Source of the DNA: a virus
Lineage: Duplodnaviria; Caudoviricetes
Strand: one strand, 5' to 3'
Virus record (IMG/VR): IMGVR_UViG_3300030085_003578
Location: 1-25,922 of that record
Length of the DNA: 25,922 nucleotides
The notes under the pieces are model-generated. The model saw nothing but the letters and a program-made list of their open reading frames with translations, was not told the origin of the DNA and made no database searches. The first letter of the stretch is position 1, and each line of letters begins with the position of its first letter. Below are positions 15,095 through 25,922 of the stretch, piece by piece. The position numbers and the translations under genes are program-made.

Positions 15095-15754
15095 ATGGCA
15101 AAAACATCTTTTTTAGGAGCTAACATTGCTGTAGCTACTGATACCTTCAGAGAATGGGTTGAAAGAACAAATCAACTTGTTTATGATGCAGGTACAATAA
15201 TAGTTACAGTTGGTGCAGTTAGTTCTCCAAACTCAACAAACCATACTATTACTACAGGAAATGGTCATGTAAATGGCTTCTTCTCTGCTAATACATTAGT
15301 TGCTAAGGATACAATAAGAGGTGGTACTGTTGCAACAGCAGCAGCTCTTAATGTTGCATCCAATGTTCATGTATCTGCAAATGTAACTCATGATATTGGT
15401 ACACCTACTATGATGGTTGCAAATGGATATTTTAACAACATATTAGTAGCTGGTGATGTTGAAGCTAGTTTTTCATCTGACATAAAATTGAAAACTGATA
15501 TCTTACAAATGACTAATGCAATGGAAGTTGTAAGTAAAATAAATGGTTATCAGTTTAGATGGAAGACAGATGATCAGAAAAATGGACAGCTTGATTTAGG
15601 TGTTATTGCTCAAGAGATAGAAGAAGAATTACCTTTTCTTGTTTCTACAAACGGTAACGGAAACAAAGCAGTTAAGTACCAATCGCTCATTCCTCTGTTA
15701 ATAGAAGCTATTAAAGAACTCAATAATAGAGTTGAAGAATTGGAGAAAGAGTAA
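15095..15754 (+). CDS. Short tail fibre protein with C-terminal intramolecular chaperone (Peptidase S74/ICA domain)
   Basis: N-terminal DTFREWVERTNQL anchor-like motif. SDIKLKTDI...INGYQFRW...GVIAQEIE...V.Y..LIPLLIEAIKEL plus a coiled-coil end is the S74 chaperone signature. GAGGA RBS. Confidence 0.9.
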   Translation: MAKTSFLGANIAVATDTFREWVERTNQLVYDAGTIIVTVGAVSSPNSTNHTITTGNGHVNGFFSANTLVAKDTIRGGTVATAAALNVASNVHVSANVTHDIGTPTMMVANGYFNNILVAGDVEASFSSDIKLKTDILQMTNAMEVVSKINGYQFRWKTDDQKNGQLDLGVIAQEIEEELPFLVSTNGNGNKAVKYQSLIPLLIEAIKELNNRVEELEKE

Positions 15755-16047
15755 TGCCATTAAAAGTAGCTGGCGTAACTATTGTTAACAGCACCGCCAA
15801 TGTTCAAACAGCAACACTTCCAGACACGGGTATATCAACTGGTAACTTTGGAAATACAACTTTTGCAATAACTGCAAATGTTACAAGTAGAGGTCTCGTG
15901 AATGCTATTAGTACTGCAGAGATAACAAAAACATCTCGCAACTTTGAAGCAGCCTCTAACAATGATTCGTCGTATGTTGTTTACGTTAGCACATCAGGTC
16001 CATCTGGTGGTGCAAATGGAGACATCTGGTACCAGACATTTAGTTAA
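15754..16047 (+). CDS. Small fibre-associated protein (97 aa)
   Basis: TAATG coupling. Contains L.DTGIS.G.FG......NV.SRG.V (fibre-repeat-like) and ends in VSTSGPSGGANGDIWYQ, a motif common in phage fibre proteins. Confidence 0.7.
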   Translation: MPLKVAGVTIVNSTANVQTATLPDTGISTGNFGNTTFAITANVTSRGLVNAISTAEITKTSRNFEAASNNDSSYVVYVSTSGPSGGANGDIWYQTFS

Positions 16048-16061
16048 GGCATATATAAAGT

Positions 16062-19000
16062 ATGTCTTACTCTACACGACTCTACGCAAAAGAATACGCA
16101 GGAGGTGAACGAACCTTCGAGATCTCGTATACTGGAGAGAATACGAGAACTCCATACATTGTGTATACAAATGCGTTCCATGGATTCTACAATGGATTTG
16201 AAGGAGTCTATACCAAGAGTAGGACATCTACACTAGCTTGGCAATCTAACTTTGCTGGCAACTATACAAAGACCTATGAAGGTTTTACTAACTATCAATC
16301 TCAAGATACAACAACATACTCTAAGGCTTATACATCCTTAAAGAACTTTTCTGGTGTAGATGGATACAGAAAAGAGTATGGTTCAGAAACCAATCAGCCA
16401 GATAGTATCTGGGCTGCAATGAACATACTTGCAAACTATTCTGGTACTTACTCTTCAGATATAGGTTACAGTCGTGTAGTTGGATATGTTGGTGATGGTC
16501 CATATGATGGAGCATCATTTACTGGAACATATGAAGGTGTTGCAAACTTTACTCCAACATATTCTGGTTTCATTGGCTTTGCACAATACACAAAAACATA
16601 TGAAGGATCAACTGATTATCTCAAAACATATCAGAAGACATATGTTGGTGAAACAATTTACCAAGCTGAATGGCAAAGAGCATATGCTAAACAATATGCA
16701 GGTTTAGCAAACTATACAAAGGCATATCAAAAAGATTATGAAGGTTTAGTAAACTACTCAGCAGGTCCTTGGGTTGGAGCTGATAGCTTTATAGTTTTTA
16801 CAAAAAACTATGGTGGAGCTATAACATATCTAGATTCTACTGGTGCTGGTTTCACAGGTTTCATTAACTACACAAAAGAATATCAAAATCTAAGATACTA
16901 TACAGTACAGGTAAACTATACAAAAGATTATACAAAATCATACACTGGTGCTGCTAACTATGAAAAGCAATATGTAGGTAGAGCATCATATGCTGCTGAT
17001 GAAAACTTTAACAAAGACTACGTAAAAGCATATAATGTAACAGCTAACTTTACCAAAGTATGGTCTGGTGGACAAACATATGAAGGTCCAGTAAACTATG
17101 ATGGTGCATCATATACTGGAACATACCAAGGTGATACTGTTTACTCAACACTTATCTACTATGTTGCAACATCTGATTATACTGGATCATATAGTGGTGT
17201 TGCCACCAACTCATTCTTAGGATTAGCTTATGAAGGTGTATACAACAAAACATACGTTGGTGATTATGTAAAGACTTATACCAAAAATTGGTTGAAAGAT
17301 TATACTAAGATTTGGGTTAAGGCCTATGATAAAAATTGGGTCAAAGCATATGACAAGCTGTATGTAGGTGACTACGAAAAAGAATACCTTCTCTCTTATC
17401 ATAAAGATTATGAAGCAACATATACTAAATTATGGCAAGCTGATTATCAAGTTGCATATGATAAAACATATGAAGGTACGTTTGATACAATTTATGAAAA
17501 AGCGTATACCAAAAACTGGGTAAAAGACTACAATAAAGATTACACAAAGGCTTGGGTTGGTACTTACAATAAAGATTATGTAAAAACATATTCTAAGATA
17601 TATCAAAAAGACTGGGTCAAAGATTATGATAAGATATATGTTGGACCAGTTTTCTACGGTGGCTTTGCTTCTGGATCACAAACGACAAACTATACTAAAG
17701 TATGGCAAGCAAGTTATGTAAAAGATTATGAAAAAGATTGGGAAAAGGCATACGTTAAATCATACGAAGGATCGTTTGATACCAATTATGTTATAGCATA
17801 TCAAAAAGACTTTCTCAAAGATTATATCAAAGGTTACACTAAAACATATACTGGTGTATATACAAAGATATGGAACGCATCTTTCCTCAAAGACTGGGCT
17901 GCAGACTATGCCAAGATATGGACTAAGAACTATGATGAGTCTTGGGCCAAGGAATGGGAAAAGGATTACGGTAAAACATACACCAAGATCTGGGAAAAGG
18001 TATGGCAGAAAGATTATGTAACTGACTATGAAAAAGATTATGTCAAAACATATACAACAGATTACAACAAAGATTACGTAAAAACTTATTCCAAAGATTA
18101 TGTAAAAACATATGAAACAGATTATACAAAAATATGGTCAAAAGATTATGCTGATGACTATACTAGAGTTTGGGAAAAAGCATACGATAAGATCTATGAA
18201 AAAGTTTGGACCAAGACTTATACTAAGAACTGGGTAAAAGACTACGAGAAGAATTACGTAGCAGCATACATCAAAAACTATGATAAGACTTGGGAAAAAG
18301 ATTATGTAACTGATTATGATAAAGTTTATCTAACTGATTGGAACAAAGGTTACGTCAAAACTTATACAGCTGCATATACAAAAGACTGGGATAAGGTTTG
18401 GACTAAAACATACACCAAAGCATATGTTGGTGCTTATACTAAGATTTGGGAAAAGAACTGGGATAAGAATTATGTTAAGTCTTACGACAAAGCATGGGTT
18501 GGTGTATATCAAAAAGATTACATAACATCTTATCATGTTCCATACGACAACTTTGATGATACTGTTCTGTTACTAAATGCAGAGGCTCCAACAGCTACAG
18601 ATAATGATACAGACTTTCATGACTTGTCTGATCAAGGTAACCATGTTACAACTGTACACGGTAATGCTGCTAAGAGTACAGATCAAAAGAAATTTGGTTC
18701 TGCATCTATAGAAGTTCCAAGTAGTGGTTCTAGTGGTCTAACAATCAACTTTGCAGATGATGACTTTAATTTTGGCAATGAAGACTTTACAATTGAGTTT
18801 TGGTTAAGAGCTCCAGGTACAAACAATGCAACAATCTTAGAAGCATATGCATCTGCTGACAATAGTGTCAAGTGGGCTATAAGAGGTAACGATGCAAGTA
18901 GTCCAAGTCAAATTATATTCTACGAAGGAACAACTGCAAGAGTTACAGCAGATGACAATAGTCCATGGTCATCTGATACATTTAACCATGTTGCAATCGT

Positions 19001-22000
19001 AAGAATAAGTAACACAATCAAAGTATATATCAATGGTACAGCTGATGCAGCAACTTACGGAACTGCAGCAAACTTAGCTGGTGCAAATAGATTAGTTATT
19101 GGTAACAGAAGACAATTAGATGCATCCATTGGTGGTTTTATTGATGATCTTAGAATAGACAAAGCTAACGGTAAGTATACTGCTAACTTCAACGTCACTG
19201 ATAATGAAACAGCTCAAGAACAAATCAACTCAGCTGATTGGACATCATATCAAAAGAACTATGTAAAAACATACACTACTGATTACAACAAAGATTATGT
19301 CAAGGCCTACGAGAAGGCTTGGACTGGTGTATATACAAAGGACTGGGTAAAAGATTATGATAAGATCTATGAAAAGAACTGGGTAAAAACATACGATAAA
19401 GAGTATGATAAAGTTTATCAAAAGAACTATGTTAAGACATATACTAAGATATATGCAAAAGATTGGGTTGGTACATACGATAAGATCTACGTTGGCCCAG
19501 TGTTCTATGGAGGTTTTGCTTCTGGTTCTCAAACAACAAACTATACTAAAGTTTGGGAAGGGTCATTTACTGACAACTATTCAAAAGATTGGAATAAGGA
19601 CTACGTAAAAGATTATACCAAGATTTGGACAAAAGATTGGAATAAAGACTACGTAGCAGCATATACCAAAGTATGGCAGAAGAATTATGATAAGACATAC
19701 GAAGGTGTGTTCAATGCCAACTATGAAAAGAACTATGTAAAAACTTACACCAAAGATTGGAACAAAGATTATGTAAAAGATTACATTAATGTCTTTGTTG
19801 GTGAGTGGGTTAAAAACTGGGTTAAAGATTACGAAGGTTCTTTTGATGCAACATACAATAAAGATTACGTTAAGTCATATGCTAAAGATTATGATAAAGT
19901 ATATGAAGGATCTTTTGATGGTAACTGGAACAAAGATTATACTAAGATATATGATAAGATATATGAAAAAGACTGGAATAAAGAATATATTGAAACATAT
20001 GAAGCAGCATATACCAAGATCTGGACTAAGAACTGGGTCAAGAATTATGATACATCATATGAAAAACAATATGATAAAGACTGGGTAAAGACATATCAAA
20101 AAGATTATGTAACTGATTATGAAAAAGATTATGTTACCAACTATGTAAAAGATTGGATAAAAGGTTACGATAAAGTCTATGCTAAGTTGTGGGCTAAAGA
20201 ATATGATAAAATCTATACCAAGATCTGGGAAAAGAACTACGTAAAAGATTACGAGAAAAATTATGTTAAGACATATACCAAAGACTGGAATAAGAATTAT
20301 GTAAAAACTTATACCAAAAATTGGGTAAAAGATTACGTAGTTAACTATGAAGTAGATTATGGTAAGACTTATACAAAAGCATATGAAGCTCACTATACAA
20401 GAGACTTTGTAAAACTATATCAAGGTGAATACACTAAAACATATGAAAAAGATTATGTTGCATCATATGAAAAGAACTATGATAAGATATATGTTAAAGA
20501 CTATGTAACTGATTACAATAAGTTGTATCAAGGTGAGTACAACAAATCATATGATGCAATCTTTGCTACGTTCCTTAAATTCTATATGGGTGCAAGGAAC
20601 TTCGAAGGAGCAATCAACTTTGTTAAGAACTATGTTGGCCCAACATATTATGTATCTCAATGGGGTACACAATATATTGGTGTCTACACTGGTGACTATT
20701 CTCATGCATATACAAAGAACTATTCTAAAGATTACAATGCTGATTATACAAAAGCATGGAATAAAGTATATACTAAAGATTGGGTCAAAGGATATGATAA
20801 AGACTATGCAAAAGATTGGGTTGTAAATTATACAAAGACATATCAGAAAATATATGTTGGTCCTGTTTTCTATGGTGGTTTTGCATCTGGGTCACAAACA
20901 ACTGATTACACTGGTGACTGGAATAAAGATTATGCTAAGGTATGGGAAACACTATATGTTGGTACTTGGGAAAAAGCATATGCTAAAGACTATGATAAAG
21001 ACTGGGAAAAAGTATACACAGGTACTTGGTCTAAAGATTATCTTAAAGATTACGTAAAAACATATTCAGGAAACTACTCAGGTACATACTCACCAGCTGC
21101 TACATTTGATACTGGATACACTGGTGCTACAGATTATTCTGGTCCAGTAAATTATCTCAAAACTTGGGAAGGTCCATATCAAGGTAGCTTTGCTCCAACA
21201 TACACTGGAGAAGAAGACTTTGTACAAAGATACACTGGAGACTGGCCTACAAATATTGCTTTTGAAGGTACAACAAGTTTTGTTGGTCCATCCTCAGGAC
21301 AGCTTGATTCCGACCTTACTGGTCAACCTAAACTCCATGTTATGCAAGATAACACTTGGAAGTCTGTCAGAAACTTATTTGTACATCAATCTGGTCAATG
21401 GAAAAAAGTTAGATATTTAAACACCAAGCAAGGTGATGAATGGAAACTTGCTTACATAGGATACGATACTACTGACATCTTCTTAGATGAAGGTGAAGCA
21501 TTACTTGATGATTCTGATGCTGGATCAGCTAGAGGTGTTGAAACACACTTAGGTAAGATAACTTACTACATCAATAACTTTAATCTTAAATCTTATCTTG
21601 AAGCTAAAGGCAAGACACCAGACTCAGTTCCACAACTTGTAAACATATACATTGGTGATAAGAACGACTATACAAAGCAATTCATATTTGGTTCTACTGC
21701 AAACAACATACCTGCTGTTAACTTAGTTATGGATTCAGTAACAGCAAATGTTTCTGGTGATACACAAGCAGAAATTAAACACCTTGTTCGTATTGTAAAC
21801 TATACAACAGGCGTTATTGCTGGTAAAGGTGGTGATGGTGGTGATGCAAATGGTAGCACCAGAGGACTTGGAAATGATGGTAGTGATGGTGGCCATGCTA
21901 TTGAAACAGGAGCCAATGTACATCTGTTCATAGAGAACTATGGTATCATTGGTGGTGGTGGAGGTGGTGGAGGTGCATCAGGTATCTCTGATCCATACAG

Positions 22001-25000
22001 TAAAGAAGCTGGTGTTTACACAACAACATATCTTGGCGCCACATATCATGGAACTACAGCTCTTACAGAATATGCTGCTACATGGAATAAAGCGTATACA
22101 AAGGACTGGATAAAAGATTACATAAAAGACTACACTGGTGATTATGCAAAAATATATACCAAGACTTATGAAGCTGCATACACAAAAGCATATGTTGGTG
22201 CATATGAAAAAGATTGGGTAAAAACTTATACTAAAGAATATGCTGCTGACTTCTCAAAAACATATGATAAAGTCTGGTCTAAAGATTATGAAAAAGCATA
22301 CGAAGGATCTTTTGAAGAGAACTATGTTAAGACATATACAAAACTGTGGCAAGGTAACTATGAGAAAACATATTCAAAAGACTATGCTAAGATATACTCA
22401 AAAGATTGGACAAAAGCATTTGATGCTGTCTATGTTGGAATATATACAAAAACATATACAAAAGCATATGCAAGAATCTTTACAAAAGCATTCAATACTG
22501 ATTGGGAAAGAGACTTCTCAACAGACTACAATAAAGGATATGATGTTGATTACCAAGGTGATTATACTAAGTCTTGGGAAAAAGTTTACTCAGCAGACTA
22601 CGAGAAAAATTGGGCTAAAGATTATGTAAAAGAATATGTTGGTGACTATACAACTGATTACAATAAGACATATACAAAAGCATACGTTGGTGTGTATAAT
22701 AAAATATGGGCAAAAGATTATGATGCAGCTTACGTAAAAGTTTGGGAAGGCAACTACAACAAAGATTATGAAAAGAACTATGTCAAATCATATGAAGGAT
22801 CATTTGATCAGGCATGGGCAAAGGTTTGGGAAAAGAATTACGAGAAAGTATGGCAAGGAACATTCTCAAAGAACTATGCAAAGAACTATCAAAAAGTTTA
22901 CAGTAAACAATATCATGGAACATATGATAAAGATTACACAAAAGCATATGTTGGTAGATTGTATTGGATTGATGAAGATAAGGCAACATACACTGGACCT
23001 CTTGGATCGTTTACATCTGCAGTTGGATATGGTGATGGTGAAGTTGAATATGCAATTGATTATGGTAAGCAATATGTTTCTGGATTTACTGGAGCAACAG
23101 CATACACAGTATCATCAAGTTTTGTATCACCAGGTGAAATAGAATCATTCTCACAAGCTGAGAACTACGATGTTGATTATGTTAAACCATATGAGAGAAT
23201 ATACGACAAGCCATATGAGAAAGTTTATGCAAAGGCTTGGGATTCATCAGCAGCTAACTATGCTAAGCAATGGGAGAAGAACTGGTTAAGAGATTGGTCT
23301 TCTAACTGGGTTGGATCCTTCCATGGTGGAACACAAGATGCTGCTACACCAACTGCATATGTTAAAACATTCTTACCAGATACTGGTGTTGCATTGTATG
23401 CAAAAGAGTATACAAATACACTGTACACAAGATTGTATGGTGGTTATGAAAGTGCTGGTACAATTACATCCACAGGTTCATATGCAAAAGCATACTCTAA
23501 GGCATATGAAAAAACATGGACTAAGACATACGATAAAGCATACCTCAAAACATACACAAATATTTTTGAGAAAGCATATGACAAAGACTATGATGGACTT
23601 GGATATGATAAAGATTGGCTTAAACAATATGTTAAGACATATGATGGAGCATCATATACAGGATCATTTGAGAAGACATATCAAAAAGAATATACAAAAG
23701 TATGGCAAGGTGACTATGTAAATGAATGGGCTGGTTCTTTCAATAAAGAATATGCAGCAGACTATAATGCAACATATGTAAAAACATACGTTGGAGTATA
23801 TACAAAAACATATGAGAGTGCTGATGCTGCTTATGTTGGACCAACTTATGATGGTGCAACATATACTAAGTCCTGGGAGAAAGACTACGAAAAAGCATAT
23901 TCCAAAGATTGGGAAAAAACATATACCAAGTCTTGGGAAAAGGATTATGAAAAGGTATATGAAGGTTCATTTACAAAAGCATGGACAAAAGATTACAGTA
24001 AAGACTACAACAAAGATTTTGCATCTAACTTTACAAAAGATTACGTAAAGAATTATGATCGTGACTATGTTGGAGACTATACAAAAACATACGAAAAAGA
24101 TTACTCAGCAGACTATGCTAAAGCATGGAACAGCTCAGCTGCAACATATACAAAAGCATGGACTAAAGCATATGATAAGTTGTACCAAGGTACATATACT
24201 AAGTCATATGAAAAGAACTACGAAAAGGATTACGAAGGTGCATTCACAAAAACTTACACCAAGGTATATCAAAAGGATTACGAAGCTGCATATGCTAAAG
24301 ATTTCACGAAGGCTTGGGTCAAAGCATACGATGCAGACTACACAAAGACTTATTCAACAGATTATACAAAGGCGTATACAAAGAACTACGACAAGGATTA
24401 TGTTGGATCGTACATTGCCACATTCTCAAGATCATACGACAAAGATTATGAAGGCTCGTATGATAAAGAATATGAAAAAACCTGGACCAAAGTTTGGACC
24501 GTTGGCTTCGGGTCTACAACTTACGTAGGAGAATATACAAAAGTTTACATAGCTGATTACACCAAAAACTACGATAAAGACTTTGGTGGATCATACGATA
24601 AAGAATACGTTAAAGAGTACAATGCTGAATATGTTGGTACCTATACAGCAACTTACATCAAGACATACTCTGAAGATTTTGTAAAAGAATATACTAAGTC
24701 TTATGATAAAGACTATGTTGCAGAGTACAATGCTACTTGGATCAAAGAATATCTTGGTCAGTATCAAAGAGTTGGTGGTGTGTATGGAGGTTATCTCAAA
24801 ACATATACAGATACGTTTGTTAGAGTATACAACACTAAAGGATCGTTCATTGGTACATATACAAAGAACTATCAAAAAATATATGAAAGAGAATATCTTG
24901 GAACATATACTAAGTTGTATCAAAAAGCATATGAAGGTACATTTGATAAAGACTATCTAACTAACTATACAAAAAGTTATGACAAGATTTATGTTGGCCC

Positions 25001-25589
25001 AGTGTTCTATGGTGGTTTTGCTTCTGGCTCACAAACAACCAACTATACTAAAGTATGGAACAAAGATTACGAAAAGAACTGGATCAAAACATACACAGGT
25101 ATCTTTACAAAAGATTATCTCAAAGAATACACTGGAACATACCTTGGAACATGGACAAAAGATTATGCCAAGGTATATGAAGATAATGCATGGTCAAGAG
25201 AAGTTAATGTTTCATACATGGGCTTTGCTGAATCAACTGGTGTTGCAGGTTCTGGTGGTGCTGGTTGGAACATTGGTACAAAAGGTACAACAGAAGCTGA
25301 TCACAGTCATCTATTATTCTTACCACAAGATAGTGATGTATTCAATGGTGGTGGTAGAGGTGTTCCAGATTGGGAGTATGGAAACTCTAGAGCTATAGGT
25401 GGTAGAGGTGGTAACTTAGGAAACATTGGTACTGGTGGTGGTGAAAGATTCTTGAGAAAAACAAGACTTGCTAGATCTGGTGATGGTGGTAAGCCTGGTG
25501 CAGCCATTAAAGGATACAATTCCAACTTCGTAAGTATGATATATCAGGGCAACATCTTGGGTGATCCTAACTATAAGTTCCAAGGGTAA
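16062..25589 (+). CDS. Giant (3175 aa) Tyr/Trp/Lys tetrapeptide-repeat protein with a LamG-like domain and a split gp38-like glycine-rich adhesin domain; putative receptor-binding appendage
   Basis: Uninterrupted 9.5-kb ORF in a fibre-gene context. Domains were recognised by motif (see the sub-features below). The ORF is secure; the function is inferred. Confidence 0.85.
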   Translation: MSYSTRLYAKEYAGGERTFEISYTGENTRTPYIVYTNAFHGFYNGFEGVYTKSRTSTLAWQSNFAGNYTKTYEGFTNYQSQDTTTYSKAYTSLKNFSGVDGYRKEYGSETNQPDSIWAAMNILANYSGTYSSDIGYSRVVGYVGDGPYDGASFTGTYEGVANFTPTYSGFIGFAQYTKTYEGSTDYLKTYQKTYVGETIYQAEWQRAYAKQYAGLANYTKAYQKDYEGLVNYSAGPWVGADSFIVFTKNYGGAITYLDSTGAGFTGFINYTKEYQNLRYYTVQVNYTKDYTKSYTGAANYEKQYVGRASYAADENFNKDYVKAYNVTANFTKVWSGGQTYEGPVNYDGASYTGTYQGDTVYSTLIYYVATSDYTGSYSGVATNSFLGLAYEGVYNKTYVGDYVKTYTKNWLKDYTKIWVKAYDKNWVKAYDKLYVGDYEKEYLLSYHKDYEATYTKLWQADYQVAYDKTYEGTFDTIYEKAYTKNWVKDYNKDYTKAWVGTYNKDYVKTYSKIYQKDWVKDYDKIYVGPVFYGGFASGSQTTNYTKVWQASYVKDYEKDWEKAYVKSYEGSFDTNYVIAYQKDFLKDYIKGYTKTYTGVYTKIWNASFLKDWAADYAKIWTKNYDESWAKEWEKDYGKTYTKIWEKVWQKDYVTDYEKDYVKTYTTDYNKDYVKTYSKDYVKTYETDYTKIWSKDYADDYTRVWEKAYDKIYEKVWTKTYTKNWVKDYEKNYVAAYIKNYDKTWEKDYVTDYDKVYLTDWNKGYVKTYTAAYTKDWDKVWTKTYTKAYVGAYTKIWEKNWDKNYVKSYDKAWVGVYQKDYITSYHVPYDNFDDTVLLLNAEAPTATDNDTDFHDLSDQGNHVTTVHGNAAKSTDQKKFGSASIEVPSSGSSGLTINFADDDFNFGNEDFTIEFWLRAPGTNNATILEAYASADNSVKWAIRGNDASSPSQIIFYEGTTARVTADDNSPWSSDTFNHVAIVRISNTIKVYINGTADAATYGTAANLAGANRLVIGNRRQLDASIGGFIDDLRIDKANGKYTANFNVTDNETAQEQINSADWTSYQKNYVKTYTTDYNKDYVKAYEKAWTGVYTKDWVKDYDKIYEKNWVKTYDKEYDKVYQKNYVKTYTKIYAKDWVGTYDKIYVGPVFYGGFASGSQTTNYTKVWEGSFTDNYSKDWNKDYVKDYTKIWTKDWNKDYVAAYTKVWQKNYDKTYEGVFNANYEKNYVKTYTKDWNKDYVKDYINVFVGEWVKNWVKDYEGSFDATYNKDYVKSYAKDYDKVYEGSFDGNWNKDYTKIYDKIYEKDWNKEYIETYEAAYTKIWTKNWVKNYDTSYEKQYDKDWVKTYQKDYVTDYEKDYVTNYVKDWIKGYDKVYAKLWAKEYDKIYTKIWEKNYVKDYEKNYVKTYTKDWNKNYVKTYTKNWVKDYVVNYEVDYGKTYTKAYEAHYTRDFVKLYQGEYTKTYEKDYVASYEKNYDKIYVKDYVTDYNKLYQGEYNKSYDAIFATFLKFYMGARNFEGAINFVKNYVGPTYYVSQWGTQYIGVYTGDYSHAYTKNYSKDYNADYTKAWNKVYTKDWVKGYDKDYAKDWVVNYTKTYQKIYVGPVFYGGFASGSQTTDYTGDWNKDYAKVWETLYVGTWEKAYAKDYDKDWEKVYTGTWSKDYLKDYVKTYSGNYSGTYSPAATFDTGYTGATDYSGPVNYLKTWEGPYQGSFAPTYTGEEDFVQRYTGDWPTNIAFEGTTSFVGPSSGQLDSDLTGQPKLHVMQDNTWKSVRNLFVHQSGQWKKVRYLNTKQGDEWKLAYIGYDTTDIFLDEGEALLDDSDAGSARGVETHLGKITYYINNFNLKSYLEAKGKTPDSVPQLVNIYIGDKNDYTKQFIFGSTANNIPAVNLVMDSVTANVSGDTQAEIKHLVRIVNYTTGVIAGKGGDGGDANGSTRGLGNDGSDGGHAIETGANVHLFIENYGIIGGGGGGGGASGISDPYSKEAGVYTTTYLGATYHGTTALTEYAATWNKAYTKDWIKDYIKDYTGDYAKIYTKTYEAAYTKAYVGAYEKDWVKTYTKEYAADFSKTYDKVWSKDYEKAYEGSFEENYVKTYTKLWQGNYEKTYSKDYAKIYSKDWTKAFDAVYVGIYTKTYTKAYARIFTKAFNTDWERDFSTDYNKGYDVDYQGDYTKSWEKVYSADYEKNWAKDYVKEYVGDYTTDYNKTYTKAYVGVYNKIWAKDYDAAYVKVWEGNYNKDYEKNYVKSYEGSFDQAWAKVWEKNYEKVWQGTFSKNYAKNYQKVYSKQYHGTYDKDYTKAYVGRLYWIDEDKATYTGPLGSFTSAVGYGDGEVEYAIDYGKQYVSGFTGATAYTVSSSFVSPGEIESFSQAENYDVDYVKPYERIYDKPYEKVYAKAWDSSAANYAKQWEKNWLRDWSSNWVGSFHGGTQDAATPTAYVKTFLPDTGVALYAKEYTNTLYTRLYGGYESAGTITSTGSYAKAYSKAYEKTWTKTYDKAYLKTYTNIFEKAYDKDYDGLGYDKDWLKQYVKTYDGASYTGSFEKTYQKEYTKVWQGDYVNEWAGSFNKEYAADYNATYVKTYVGVYTKTYESADAAYVGPTYDGATYTKSWEKDYEKAYSKDWEKTYTKSWEKDYEKVYEGSFTKAWTKDYSKDYNKDFASNFTKDYVKNYDRDYVGDYTKTYEKDYSADYAKAWNSSAATYTKAWTKAYDKLYQGTYTKSYEKNYEKDYEGAFTKTYTKVYQKDYEAAYAKDFTKAWVKAYDADYTKTYSTDYTKAYTKNYDKDYVGSYIATFSRSYDKDYEGSYDKEYEKTWTKVWTVGFGSTTYVGEYTKVYIADYTKNYDKDFGGSYDKEYVKEYNAEYVGTYTATYIKTYSEDFVKEYTKSYDKDYVAEYNATWIKEYLGQYQRVGGVYGGYLKTYTDTFVRVYNTKGSFIGTYTKNYQKIYEREYLGTYTKLYQKAYEGTFDKDYLTNYTKSYDKIYVGPVFYGGFASGSQTTNYTKVWNKDYEKNWIKTYTGIFTKDYLKEYTGTYLGTWTKDYAKVYEDNAWSREVNVSYMGFAESTGVAGSGGAGWNIGTKGTTEADHSHLLFLPQDSDVFNGGGRGVPDWEYGNSRAIGGRGGNLGNIGTGGGERFLRKTRLARSGDGGKPGAAIKGYNSNFVSMIYQGNILGDPNYKFQG
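17631..17705 (+). repeat. Dispersed 75-nt repeat, copy 1 (KIYVGPVFYGGFASGSQTTNYTKVW)
   Basis: Read directly; other copies start at 19482, 20847 and 24984. Confidence 0.97.
18552..19190 (+). other. LamG/concanavalin A-like lectin domain within the giant ORF (about aa 831-1043)
   Basis: VLLL..., F.D.S..., GNA..ST.QKKFGSASI, FNFGNEDFTIEFW, NHVAIVR..NTIKVYINGT, L.IG, GFIDDLRI and YTANF make up the phage Laminin_G_3-type pattern. Confidence 0.9.
19482..19556 (+). repeat. Dispersed 75-nt repeat, copy 2 (KIYVGPVFYGGFASGSQTTNYTKVW)
   Basis: Same peptide as copy 1, with only synonymous DNA differences. Confidence 0.97.
20847..20921 (+). repeat. Dispersed 75-nt repeat, copy 3 (KIYVGPVFYGGFASGSQTTDYTGDW)
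   Basis: First 19 aa identical to the other copies; three substitutions in the last 6 aa. Confidence 0.95.
21576..21983 (+). other. gp38-like glycine-rich adhesin domain, N-terminal half (about aa 1839-1974)
   Basis: VIAGKGGDGG...GSDGGHAIETGANVHLFIENYGIIGGGGGGGG parallels the GRGG.GG...GG..I......LRINN.GAIAGGGGGGG pattern of T2/S16-type gp38. Confidence 0.75.
24984..25058 (+). repeat. Dispersed 75-nt repeat, copy 4 (KIYVGPVFYGGFASGSQTTNYTKVW)
   Basis: Same peptide as copies 1 and 2, with only synonymous DNA differences. Confidence 0.97.
25239..25586 (+). other. gp38-like glycine-rich adhesin domain, C-terminal half (about aa 3060-3175)
   Basis: GSGGAGW..G..G, GGGRG, GGRGGNLGNIG, GGKPGAAIKG and GNILG parallel the later glycine-rich motifs and the G.I.G terminus of gp38-type adhesins. 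Confidence 0.72.
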
Positions 25590-25595
25590 GAGGCT

Positions 25596-25922
25596 ATGGG
25601 TAAGCCTCTCAAGATTAAAACCACTGGTGGTGGAACTTGGGTTGCACTACAAGAAATACCTGATACCGAACTAACACACATTGTACATCAAGTTCTTTTA
25701 GAGTTTGCTTCTAGTACTTCTGGTACAGGAACTTTATCTGTTGGAACTGATACTGGTGACAGTATAGGTTCTTTTACTGATACAAATTCATCTGCAAGCT
25801 CAACAACAACAGTTTATCAGAATCTAACATCAGTTTCTGAAACAAGTATGATCCGTCCTGTTGAATTTAGTACAACTATACAGGAAACATCGGATGCAAA
25901 TCTTAACTCGATTATCATTAGT
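25596..25922 (+). CDS. Hypothetical Ser/Thr-rich, probably structural protein, 3'-truncated (not in the ORF track)
   Basis: ATG at 25596, six bases after the giant ORF stop, preceded by AAGAGG. Open for 109 codons to the window end: MGKPLKIKTTGGGTWVALQEIPDTELTHIVHQVLLEFASSTSGTGTLSVG... Confidence 0.8.
   Translation, partial: MGKPLKIKTTGGGTWVALQEIPDTELTHIVHQVLLEFASSTSGTGTLSVGTDTGDSIGSFTDTNSSASSTTTVYQNLTSVSETSMIRPVEFSTTIQETSDANLNSIIIS

Follow-up and report, generated by a model that had tools for sequence, protein, structure and literature searches.

The virus record IMGVR_UViG_3300030085_003578 was analysed over its whole length of 25,922 nucleotides (25.9 kb; the window), which holds a T4-like baseplate cluster and a tail-fibre locus. 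The genes run in the order end of a gp5-like hub, gp25, gp6, gp7, gp8, a DUF4815 protein of 2187 amino acids (aa), a 71-aa virion protein, a 219-aa mini-fibre, a 97-aa protein, a giant protein of 3175 aa and a gene, starting at 25596, that is cut by the window end (Table 1). The giant consists mostly of [YWF]-x-K-x repeats, with 14% Tyr, 11% Lys and no Cys. Its repeats are interrupted by a short motif, KIYVGPVFYGGFASGSQTT, and the subject of this report is the role of that motif at the ends of predicted hairpins in the giant and its relatives.

The motif begins at 17631, 19482, 20847 and 24984, each time in the frame of the open reading frame 16062-25589 (aa 524, 1141, 1596 and 2975). The core is identical in the four copies: in all six pairwise comparisons the amino acids agree, the 6-11 nucleotide differences fall at codon position 3 without exception, and 14 of the 19 codon columns are variable. 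The copies and third-position differences were described correctly, down to the quoted Gly and Ile codons, in a first-pass annotation of this DNA. On average 8.67 codons differ, against 9.78 +/- 1.06 under full synonymous randomisation (P = 0.17), and the copies are therefore old. With synonymous sites near saturation and no change of amino acid, the purifying selection on a functional unit proposed in that annotation is supported. Among the copies, flank identity stands at 0.44 and 0.41 over the nearest 20 aa and falls to 0.31 and 0.26 beyond, against 0.34 +/- 0.10 for random in-phase 20-mers of the repeat. Since the flanks are thus near repeat background rather than as conserved as the motif, and synonymous sites are near saturation, a simple recent duplication was rejected. 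The longest exact repeat in the giant outside the motif is 15 aa, and 27 residues are common to three of the copies. The four-residue register had been said to break at each copy; the shift is real, with the last in-register Tyr and the next such Tyr 18 residues apart, but the first four motif residues, KIYV, are still in register. An assembly artefact was rejected, as two other assemblies (L034 and L035) hold all four copies in one frame, and in three near-identical strains the motif has synonymous changes only (1, 1 and 2). A fifth copy lies in the downstream gene past the window end, where it is seen in a contig 99.7% identical to the window. A degenerate word, GGVYGGY, at 24777-24794 (aa about 2906-2911) resembles the motif core and recurs at the equivalent place in L019; it is possibly a decayed or short tip.

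The repeats on either side of the motif covary in mirror image at the sequence level. In a mirror-axis scan, mutual information between residues i and S-i was computed for 360 axes per protein and compared with phase-preserving shuffles; the best axis falls at GGF-A of the motif in all four downstream proteins (z 7.8-11.1). With G the motif Gly, W-Y and G-G pairs are favoured and W-W pairs avoided (3 seen, 13.9 expected) at the sum 2G+14, Y-K, W-A/T and F-G are preferred at +16, and V-E and D-N at +12. In established beta-sheet geometry, a twisted antiparallel two-stranded ribbon has a direct pair and opposite diagonals on its two faces, and the three pairing sums (2G+14, +16, +12) are the pattern expected of such a ribbon. 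Without any trained matrix, column covariation across 40 tip hairpins has its maxima at i+j = 14, 16 and 12, counted from the motif Gly, with 18 of the 20 top pairs at sums 12-16. Substitutions between related phages also co-occur mirror-wise (W704Y and W708Y with A872K, for example), and their peak lies at most 4 residues from the predicted register in 5/5 pairwise comparisons. Each pair of arms is very probably an antiparallel ribbon whose aromatic residues face one another, as do its Lys residues; Y-K, W-A/T and F-G would lie along one diagonal, V-E and D-N along the opposite one.

For folding, a Nussinov-type nested algorithm that is blind to the motif was given pair scores learned from the downstream proteins of two further phages (L014 and L002). 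Averaged over five homologues, the window included, the fold has eight stems, four of which close at sums 1070, 2304, 3214 and 5972, exactly 2G+14 for each copy. The window sequence alone gives stems on three of the four copies with a score of 292, and 20 block shuffles of the protein score 41-59 and match 1 of 80 motif axes. Copy 3, closed in the homologue-averaged fold, is the one missed by the single-sequence fold. When 48-residue arms are ranked against in-phase partners, copy 1 ranks 1/344, copy 2 1/346 and copy 4 1/354. Over 15 proteins from 10 phages, predicted tips fall at 38/52 copies against 2/52 after one shuffle each; two giants in this set come from the training phages, though as different genes. 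The distant proteins P0002 and P0003 fold poorly under the trained code (scores 28 and 6).

The stems are predicted to nest without crossing, as in RNA secondary structure, in a tree whose branches end in the motif, in the LamG domain or in plain turns. In the predicted layout the trunk leads to hairpin 1 and a 200-pair stem, and this stem to the LamG domain and hairpin 2; after the trunk come hairpin 3, the gp38-like core and then hairpins 5, 6 and 4 inside the gp38-like insertion. The 1452-aa downstream protein is predicted to be a single long hairpin of 316 pairs with the fifth motif copy at its tip, and the 2713-aa downstream protein of G005 to have four arms, each ending on a motif copy. 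At a rise of 3.3 Å per residue, an upper bound if the ribbon coils, the window's arms would be no longer than about 15-65 nm, and the downstream hairpin, in its regular part, would reach about 100 nm. A second conserved tip, WNSSAAT (24126-24146, aa 2689-2695), is the predicted closing turn of hairpin 6 in the window as well as in L003 and L033, and related SSAA words occur elsewhere in giants. The giant gene at L019:10964-20373 comes as two frames that overlap near 15350-15550, through a frameshift or an error of assembly.

AlphaFold2 run with 16 hairpins gives two long strands at a mean predicted local distance difference test (pLDDT) of 60. With 40 hairpins, the copy 2 hairpin is modelled as strands 2-35 and 38-74 joined by a two-residue turn at Gly-Gly (mean pLDDT 83.1; 4/5 models at 78 or more). 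The stem sum taken from the strand ends is 2G+14 and that from the turn 2G+11, so that about three residues of offset would have to be absorbed in or near the motif. The motif is accordingly modelled as a tight Gly-Gly turn flanked by aromatics, with a predicted offset of roughly three residues following in its S/G/Q/T half. That it forms the tip of a hairpin, one of the guesses of the first-pass annotation, is highly probable, as the mirror axis, the blind nested fold, the untrained covariation and the AlphaFold2 hairpin all point to it. Fold searches with the predicted hairpin returned generic long hairpins only, with no match at Z>=5 or E<=0.001. The tip hairpin matches no Pfam family at E<=1 and PHROG gives nothing over the repeats; against PDB sequences it finds one chain at E=1.1, and its Atlas matches are unnamed and below the recognition threshold.

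Table 1. Positions in the window of the giant protein, its predicted parts and the adjoining genes.
Feature	Position	Strand	Description
219-aa mini-fibre	15095..15754	+	S74 intramolecular chaperone, PF13884 E=2.3e-14
97-aa protein	15754..16047	+	strongly conserved in 9 relatives
Giant 3175-aa [YWF]-x-K-x repeat protein	16062..25589	+	predicted tree of two-stranded antiparallel ribbons
Trunk, outgoing strand	17229..17348	+	aa 390-429, predicted to pair with aa 1465-1504 (20454-20573); same stem in L003
Hairpin 1	17385..17954	+	aa 442-631, about 84 residue pairs
Motif copy 1	17631..17687	+	aa 524-542; predicted tip of hairpin 1
Long stem, outgoing strand	17955..18554	+	aa 632-831, predicted to pair with aa 1245-1444 (19794-20393); encloses LamG and hairpin 2
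LamG / ConA-like domain	18555..19247	+	aa about 832-1062, at the junction ending the long stem; PF13385 E=1.5e-18, PHROG matches
Hairpin 2	19248..19793	+	aa 1063-1244, about 80 residue pairs
Motif copy 2	19482..19538	+	aa 1141-1159; predicted tip of hairpin 2
Hairpin 3	20709..21062	+	aa 1550-1667; L003 equivalent turns at VDGSGDT
Motif copy 3	20847..20903	+	aa 1596-1614; probable tip of short hairpin 3, the weakest case
gp38-like glycine-rich adhesin domain, part 1	21741..22001	+	aa 1894-1980; PF05268 E=2.8e-8; phrog_11439 positions 592-668
Hairpin 5	22083..22922	+	aa 2008-2287, about 130 pairs; predicted tip without motif
Hairpin 6	23874..24398	+	aa 2605-2779; predicted tip WNSSAAT, without motif
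Hairpin 4	24858..25187	+	aa 2933-3042
Motif copy 4	24984..25040	+	aa 2975-2993; predicted tip of hairpin 4, within the insertion in the gp38-like domain
gp38-like domain, part 2	25236..25562	+	aa 3059-3167; phrog_11439 positions 671-772, E=0.0017
Start of downstream repeat protein	25596..25922	+	1452 aa in the 99.7% identical contig

Two recognizable domains interrupt the repeats of the giant. The LamG domain (PF13385, 67.9 bits against a cut-off of 27.6) covers aa 897-1032 of an insert that is distinct from the motif. The second is a gp38-like adhesin domain (PF05268, GP38; 34.3 bits against a cut-off of 25, profile positions 47-125 of 218), whose profile match ends at aa 1979 and picks up at aa 3059, about 1,080 aa later. 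The intervening sequence (22002-25235) is about 1,080 aa of repeat and follows a long glycine-rich motif; at this place P0002 and P0003 have an intact short loop of about 10 aa. Motif copy 4 thus lies within an insertion that replaces the loop after a glycine-rich motif. In the gp38 pattern a monomer is attached to the trimeric fibre by three Trp. Three x-W-K repeats stand upstream of the gp38-like domain (aa about 1757-1800, 21330-21461), and the C-terminus of the 97-aa protein is a conserved GDIWYQ; together these possibly provide a monomer-on-trimer attachment. The giant is likely a monomeric gp38-type adhesin hung on the trimeric mini-fibre, with the 219-aa protein a possible anchor and the 97-aa protein, which has no family match in profile searches, a possible adaptor.

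The downstream protein looks like a parallel fibre rather than a partner of the giant, since it bears the same motif at its own predicted hairpin tip. Its N-terminal domain (window 25596-25922; L007:10607-11320) contains three apparent internal repeats (PLKIK.., RPVEF.., PLKVN..), visible also in phage C48C1, and may form a pseudo-threefold base; the protein has a conserved C-terminal strand, LWVRxA. Past the window end, in the 99.7% identical contig, three genes lie 3' of this fibre (L007:14976-17356), encoding a 263-aa helper-like protein, a 295-aa glycosyltransferase-like protein with a DAD motif and a 257-aa 2OG-Fe(II)-oxygenase-like protein (HxN...H...R). This cassette is found 3' of the fibre genes in every relative in which the region is visible. 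None of the three proteins has a family or PDB match; the glycosyltransferase-like protein aligns to a C48C1 gene at E=2e-20, and for the oxygenase-like protein there is an Atlas lead only, to Asp/Asn beta-hydroxylase-like clusters. The cassette enzymes might hydroxylate and glycosylate the Lys-rich ribbons. What comes after the cassette differs: in one relative it is a phosphate-binding-protein-like gene (PF12849; L009:17508-18545, minus strand), in the window's species a 319-aa hydrophobic membrane-like protein of no family (L007:17754-18713, minus strand). At the other end of the window, a 432-aa protein (331-1629) between the gp5-like gene and gp25 gives weak helical-repeat matches below cut-off.

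The motif is, by its distribution, confined to this repeat-protein family. The first-pass annotation had proposed searching for it across phage proteins; a motif profile gave seven matches among 1.84 billion proteins, all in proteins of the same repeat. In two relaxed viral scans 63 of 65 stretches had the repeat context, and the other two look unrelated. A DNA pattern for Y-V-G-P-[VI]-[FY]-Y-G-G-[FY] had 0 matches in GTDB genomes, and for this one exact motif pattern host-peptide mimicry was rejected. Homologue searches on the repeat regions returned two and zero matches. Phage C48C1 (OQ984149, Kyanoviridae) is the only phage record to match the repeat region. Its 3347-aa protein WJE88074.1, annotated hypothetical, has a homologous N-terminal domain (pairwise E=1e-16), for all that a tblastn search of the phage collection with the N-terminal domain of the downstream protein had no match. 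It also shares a similar C-terminal strand, a four-residue aromatic repeat and similar downstream genes, and its N- and C-terminal arms pair in mirror (Y-Y, R-G, N-S), in a register that was set by eye after the mutual-information scan missed the axis and is illustrative only. It differs in having Arg instead of Lys and repeats interrupted by 70-250 aa of non-repeat insert, and the GPxxYGG motif was not seen on inspection of the 3347 aa. The C48C1 homologue (L028:13599-23642) has Arg-type and Phe-type 8-mers in mirror order, several 150-aa non-repeat inserts and what looks like a duplicated stretch of about 70 aa around aa 2010-2150.

In the reading that we prefer, the giant would fold back on itself into long two-stranded beta-ribbon branches, with the motif as the turn at the branch tip. 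The motif would then be a minimal binding tip, displayed at several places in each chain and also on the neighbouring fibre, and the repeated tips would give avidity for a repeated surface ligand. The motif appears dispensable as a turn because 33/71 predicted terminal stems do without it. There are 27 motif variants, in which the second half varies between phages and the stability of the first half is partly set by the search pattern. Phage-specific versions span most copies in two genes: ASGSDET in 6/8 (G005), E for A in 7/8 (G006) and ASGSDTT in 5/8 (G007). Similarly, F has changed to Y in 3/4 copies of L009 and 4/4 of L019 and is kept in L003, which is 95.7% identical to L009. The Y copies of L009 are synonymously saturated (10.0 vs 9.7), each with its own synonymous background, so the change appears to have been parallel. 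A motif not needed for the turn, phage-specific versions, and an F to Y change in copies with their own synonymous backgrounds together suggest that the tips have one shared partner. A host-surface ligand is favoured because the gene lies in a tail-fibre locus, the giant has LamG and gp38-like domains, and copy 4 sits in an expanded gp38-type loop. Loops of gp38 between glycine-rich motifs bind the receptor (PMC12032242), and residues at the gp37 tip bind lipopolysaccharide and OmpC (PMC6957217). That the tips bind one shared target, most likely the host cell surface, seems to us evenly balanced on these sequence comparisons. The giant as a multivalent scaffold, suggested in the first-pass annotation, is plausible in the sense of multivalent tips.

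Several observations weigh against the preferred reading. Host-range loops are usually hypervariable, and between the window and L003 the tips are conserved at 0.95-1.0, against 0.89 for LamG and 0.86 for the gp38-like domain. Synonymous divergence is below chance in G005 (6.9 vs 9.1), G006 (4.1 vs 8.2) and G007 (5.9 vs 8.7), so that recombination or branch duplication alone can homogenise copies; the five copies of the window's species are also slightly under saturation (7.6 vs 9.7, P = 0.017), and the four copies of L024 differ from one another in the variable half. In the folding analysis 14/52 copies were left unplaced at tips, and copy 3 ranks only 16/349 in the test of 48-residue arms. 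The AlphaFold2 alignments were built from the same covarying hairpins and are not independent evidence; the 16-sequence model leaves the motif below pLDDT 50, and the predicted TM-score of the 40-hairpin model is only 0.38.

The motif might instead be a purely structural nucleus, a very stable turn that fixes the register so that the four-residue units zip without slipping, with the identity of the copies kept by structural constraint and recombination between them. The longest arms do bear the motif (316 pairs in the downstream protein; four of four tips in the G005 downstream protein), its first half, G-P-x-aromatic-aromatic-G-G-aromatic, fits a turn and is the stable part over the 27 variants, and the homogenisation in G005-G007 indicates that DNA-level copying occurs. 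Yet other turns close many arms, including the roughly 130 pairs of hairpin 5, the exposed half is free to vary among phages but is fixed within one phage at near-saturated synonymous sites, and a parallel F to Y change in saturated copies is unexpected from structure alone; we therefore think a nucleus rather unlikely. The motif as a maturation cleavage site or a branch point, both also raised in the first-pass annotation, is very improbable. An exposed, conserved Gly/Ser-rich loop could be cut, and a cut at the tip would leave the strands paired, but no sign of a protease was seen, the giants of relatives have three to six copies, and the L003 equivalent of hairpin 3 lacks the motif. Nor is it found at the predicted branch junctions (about aa 430-441, 631/632, 832, 1244/1245 and 1445-1464), so the branch point guess is not supported.

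A single partner of the tips could also be encoded by the phage itself. Candidates are the helper, either of the two cassette enzymes (glycosyltransferase-like and oxygenase-like), a cap, for instance the 97-aa protein, and another tip; the S/T-rich half would perhaps be a modification site for the enzymes. Such a partner explains the concerted change equally well as a host ligand does, the cassette is conserved 3' of the fibre genes in every relative visible, and C48C1 has three similar-looking genes too (one by the E=2e-20 alignment, two by eye). C48C1, however, combines the cassette and the pairing code with a 3347-aa protein in which the motif was not seen, and the 97-aa protein hardly changes while the tip loops of L024 change completely. 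A weaker point in the same direction is that the divergence of helper and enzymes is 10-12% between two phages that share a tip, and only 1-3% between F- and Y-tip phages. We regard a phage-encoded partner as unlikely. Under the host-binding reading, single polypeptides would fold like RNA, a residue-pairing code zipping four-residue repeats into a ribbon tree that bears a 15-residue receptor-binding tip on up to eight branch ends, retuned together; to this combined picture we give slightly less than an even chance. The ribbon tree, tens to more than a hundred nanometres in size, would on that picture be a programmable, multivalent host-capture device, a description we hold with the same reserve.

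The nearest known fold-back fibre is the T4 gp37 needle, a six-stranded structure in which the chain runs out, turns at the distal tip and returns as a hairpin. The giant shares with it a fold-back chain with a distal tip, here predicted, and Gly packed on Phe in the stem, likewise predicted here. The gp37 needle is a homotrimer, short and unbranched, with seven His-coordinated irons (PMC6957217), whereas the predicted arms here have 80-316 pairs, branch and follow a four-residue pairing code. Stem sites for iron of the gp37 type were not found in the giant or the downstream protein: the one His-x-His of the giant (aa 3081) is outside all stems and the downstream protein has none. The solved gp37 needle was not among the matches listed in the fold and sequence searches, an absence that does not exclude likeness. 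In T2/S16-type Straboviridae, gp38 is a monomer on a trimeric fibre, with loops that are four-residue hypervariable turns (PMC12032242, PMC6851490). The giant resembles it in having a glycine-rich adhesin domain that matches PF05268 in a fibre locus; it differs in that this domain is no small stand-alone protein but about 8% of the 3175-aa chain, with about 1,080 aa of ribbon between its two parts, and in that the tips are identical within a phage. The best structural matches, the long beta-hairpins of lysenin, the protective antigen pore and the phi29 collar, are alike in shape only; they belong to multi-chain barrels with no aromatic/lysine repeat, and the scores are low (best VIA, Z 3.6 and root mean square deviation 7.5 over 78 residues; then Z 3.4 and 8.8 over 73). 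The CryoSeek glycofibril TLP-4 is a single linear chain of tetrapeptide repeats with dihydroxyproline and Ser/Thr glycans (PMC11725842). It is like the present system in its tetrapeptide repeats, which here are adjoined by glycosyltransferase-like and oxygenase-like genes, and unlike it in that the repeat is different and is predicted to pair by folding back. Literature searches, with subscription journals largely outside their coverage, found no description of such branched ribbon fibres. The branched-ribbon architecture as modelled appears to be new, and its function we infer; the analysis adds that copies of one motif are predicted to stand at the ends of several branches of a single chain, that turns are predicted without it too, and that its copies change together.

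The phage is marine. At least half of the sampled words were present in 14 of 24 listed runs, spanning six marine or estuarine studies, so the phage of the window is not rare. RNA contigs from one run span the stretch; contigs alone are no proof of transcription. The photosynthesis gene psbA was found in 0 of 5 records checked, four of which are incomplete.

The 75-residue tip hairpin is a small construct for structure determination and ligand screens, for which natural tip variants exist (F/Y, A/E, Q/D and plain turns). GenBank also has the sequenced genome of C48C1, a relative that uses the same code. Designers of long beta-ribbons could draw on the pairing rule too. Most phage fibres described so far are trimeric and bind at one end. 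If the present reading is true, one chain folding into a branched ribbon tree under a pairing rule that can be read would amount to a fibre architecture of a new kind, and repeating a short tip module on several of its branches would open a new way to avidity in dilute seawater.

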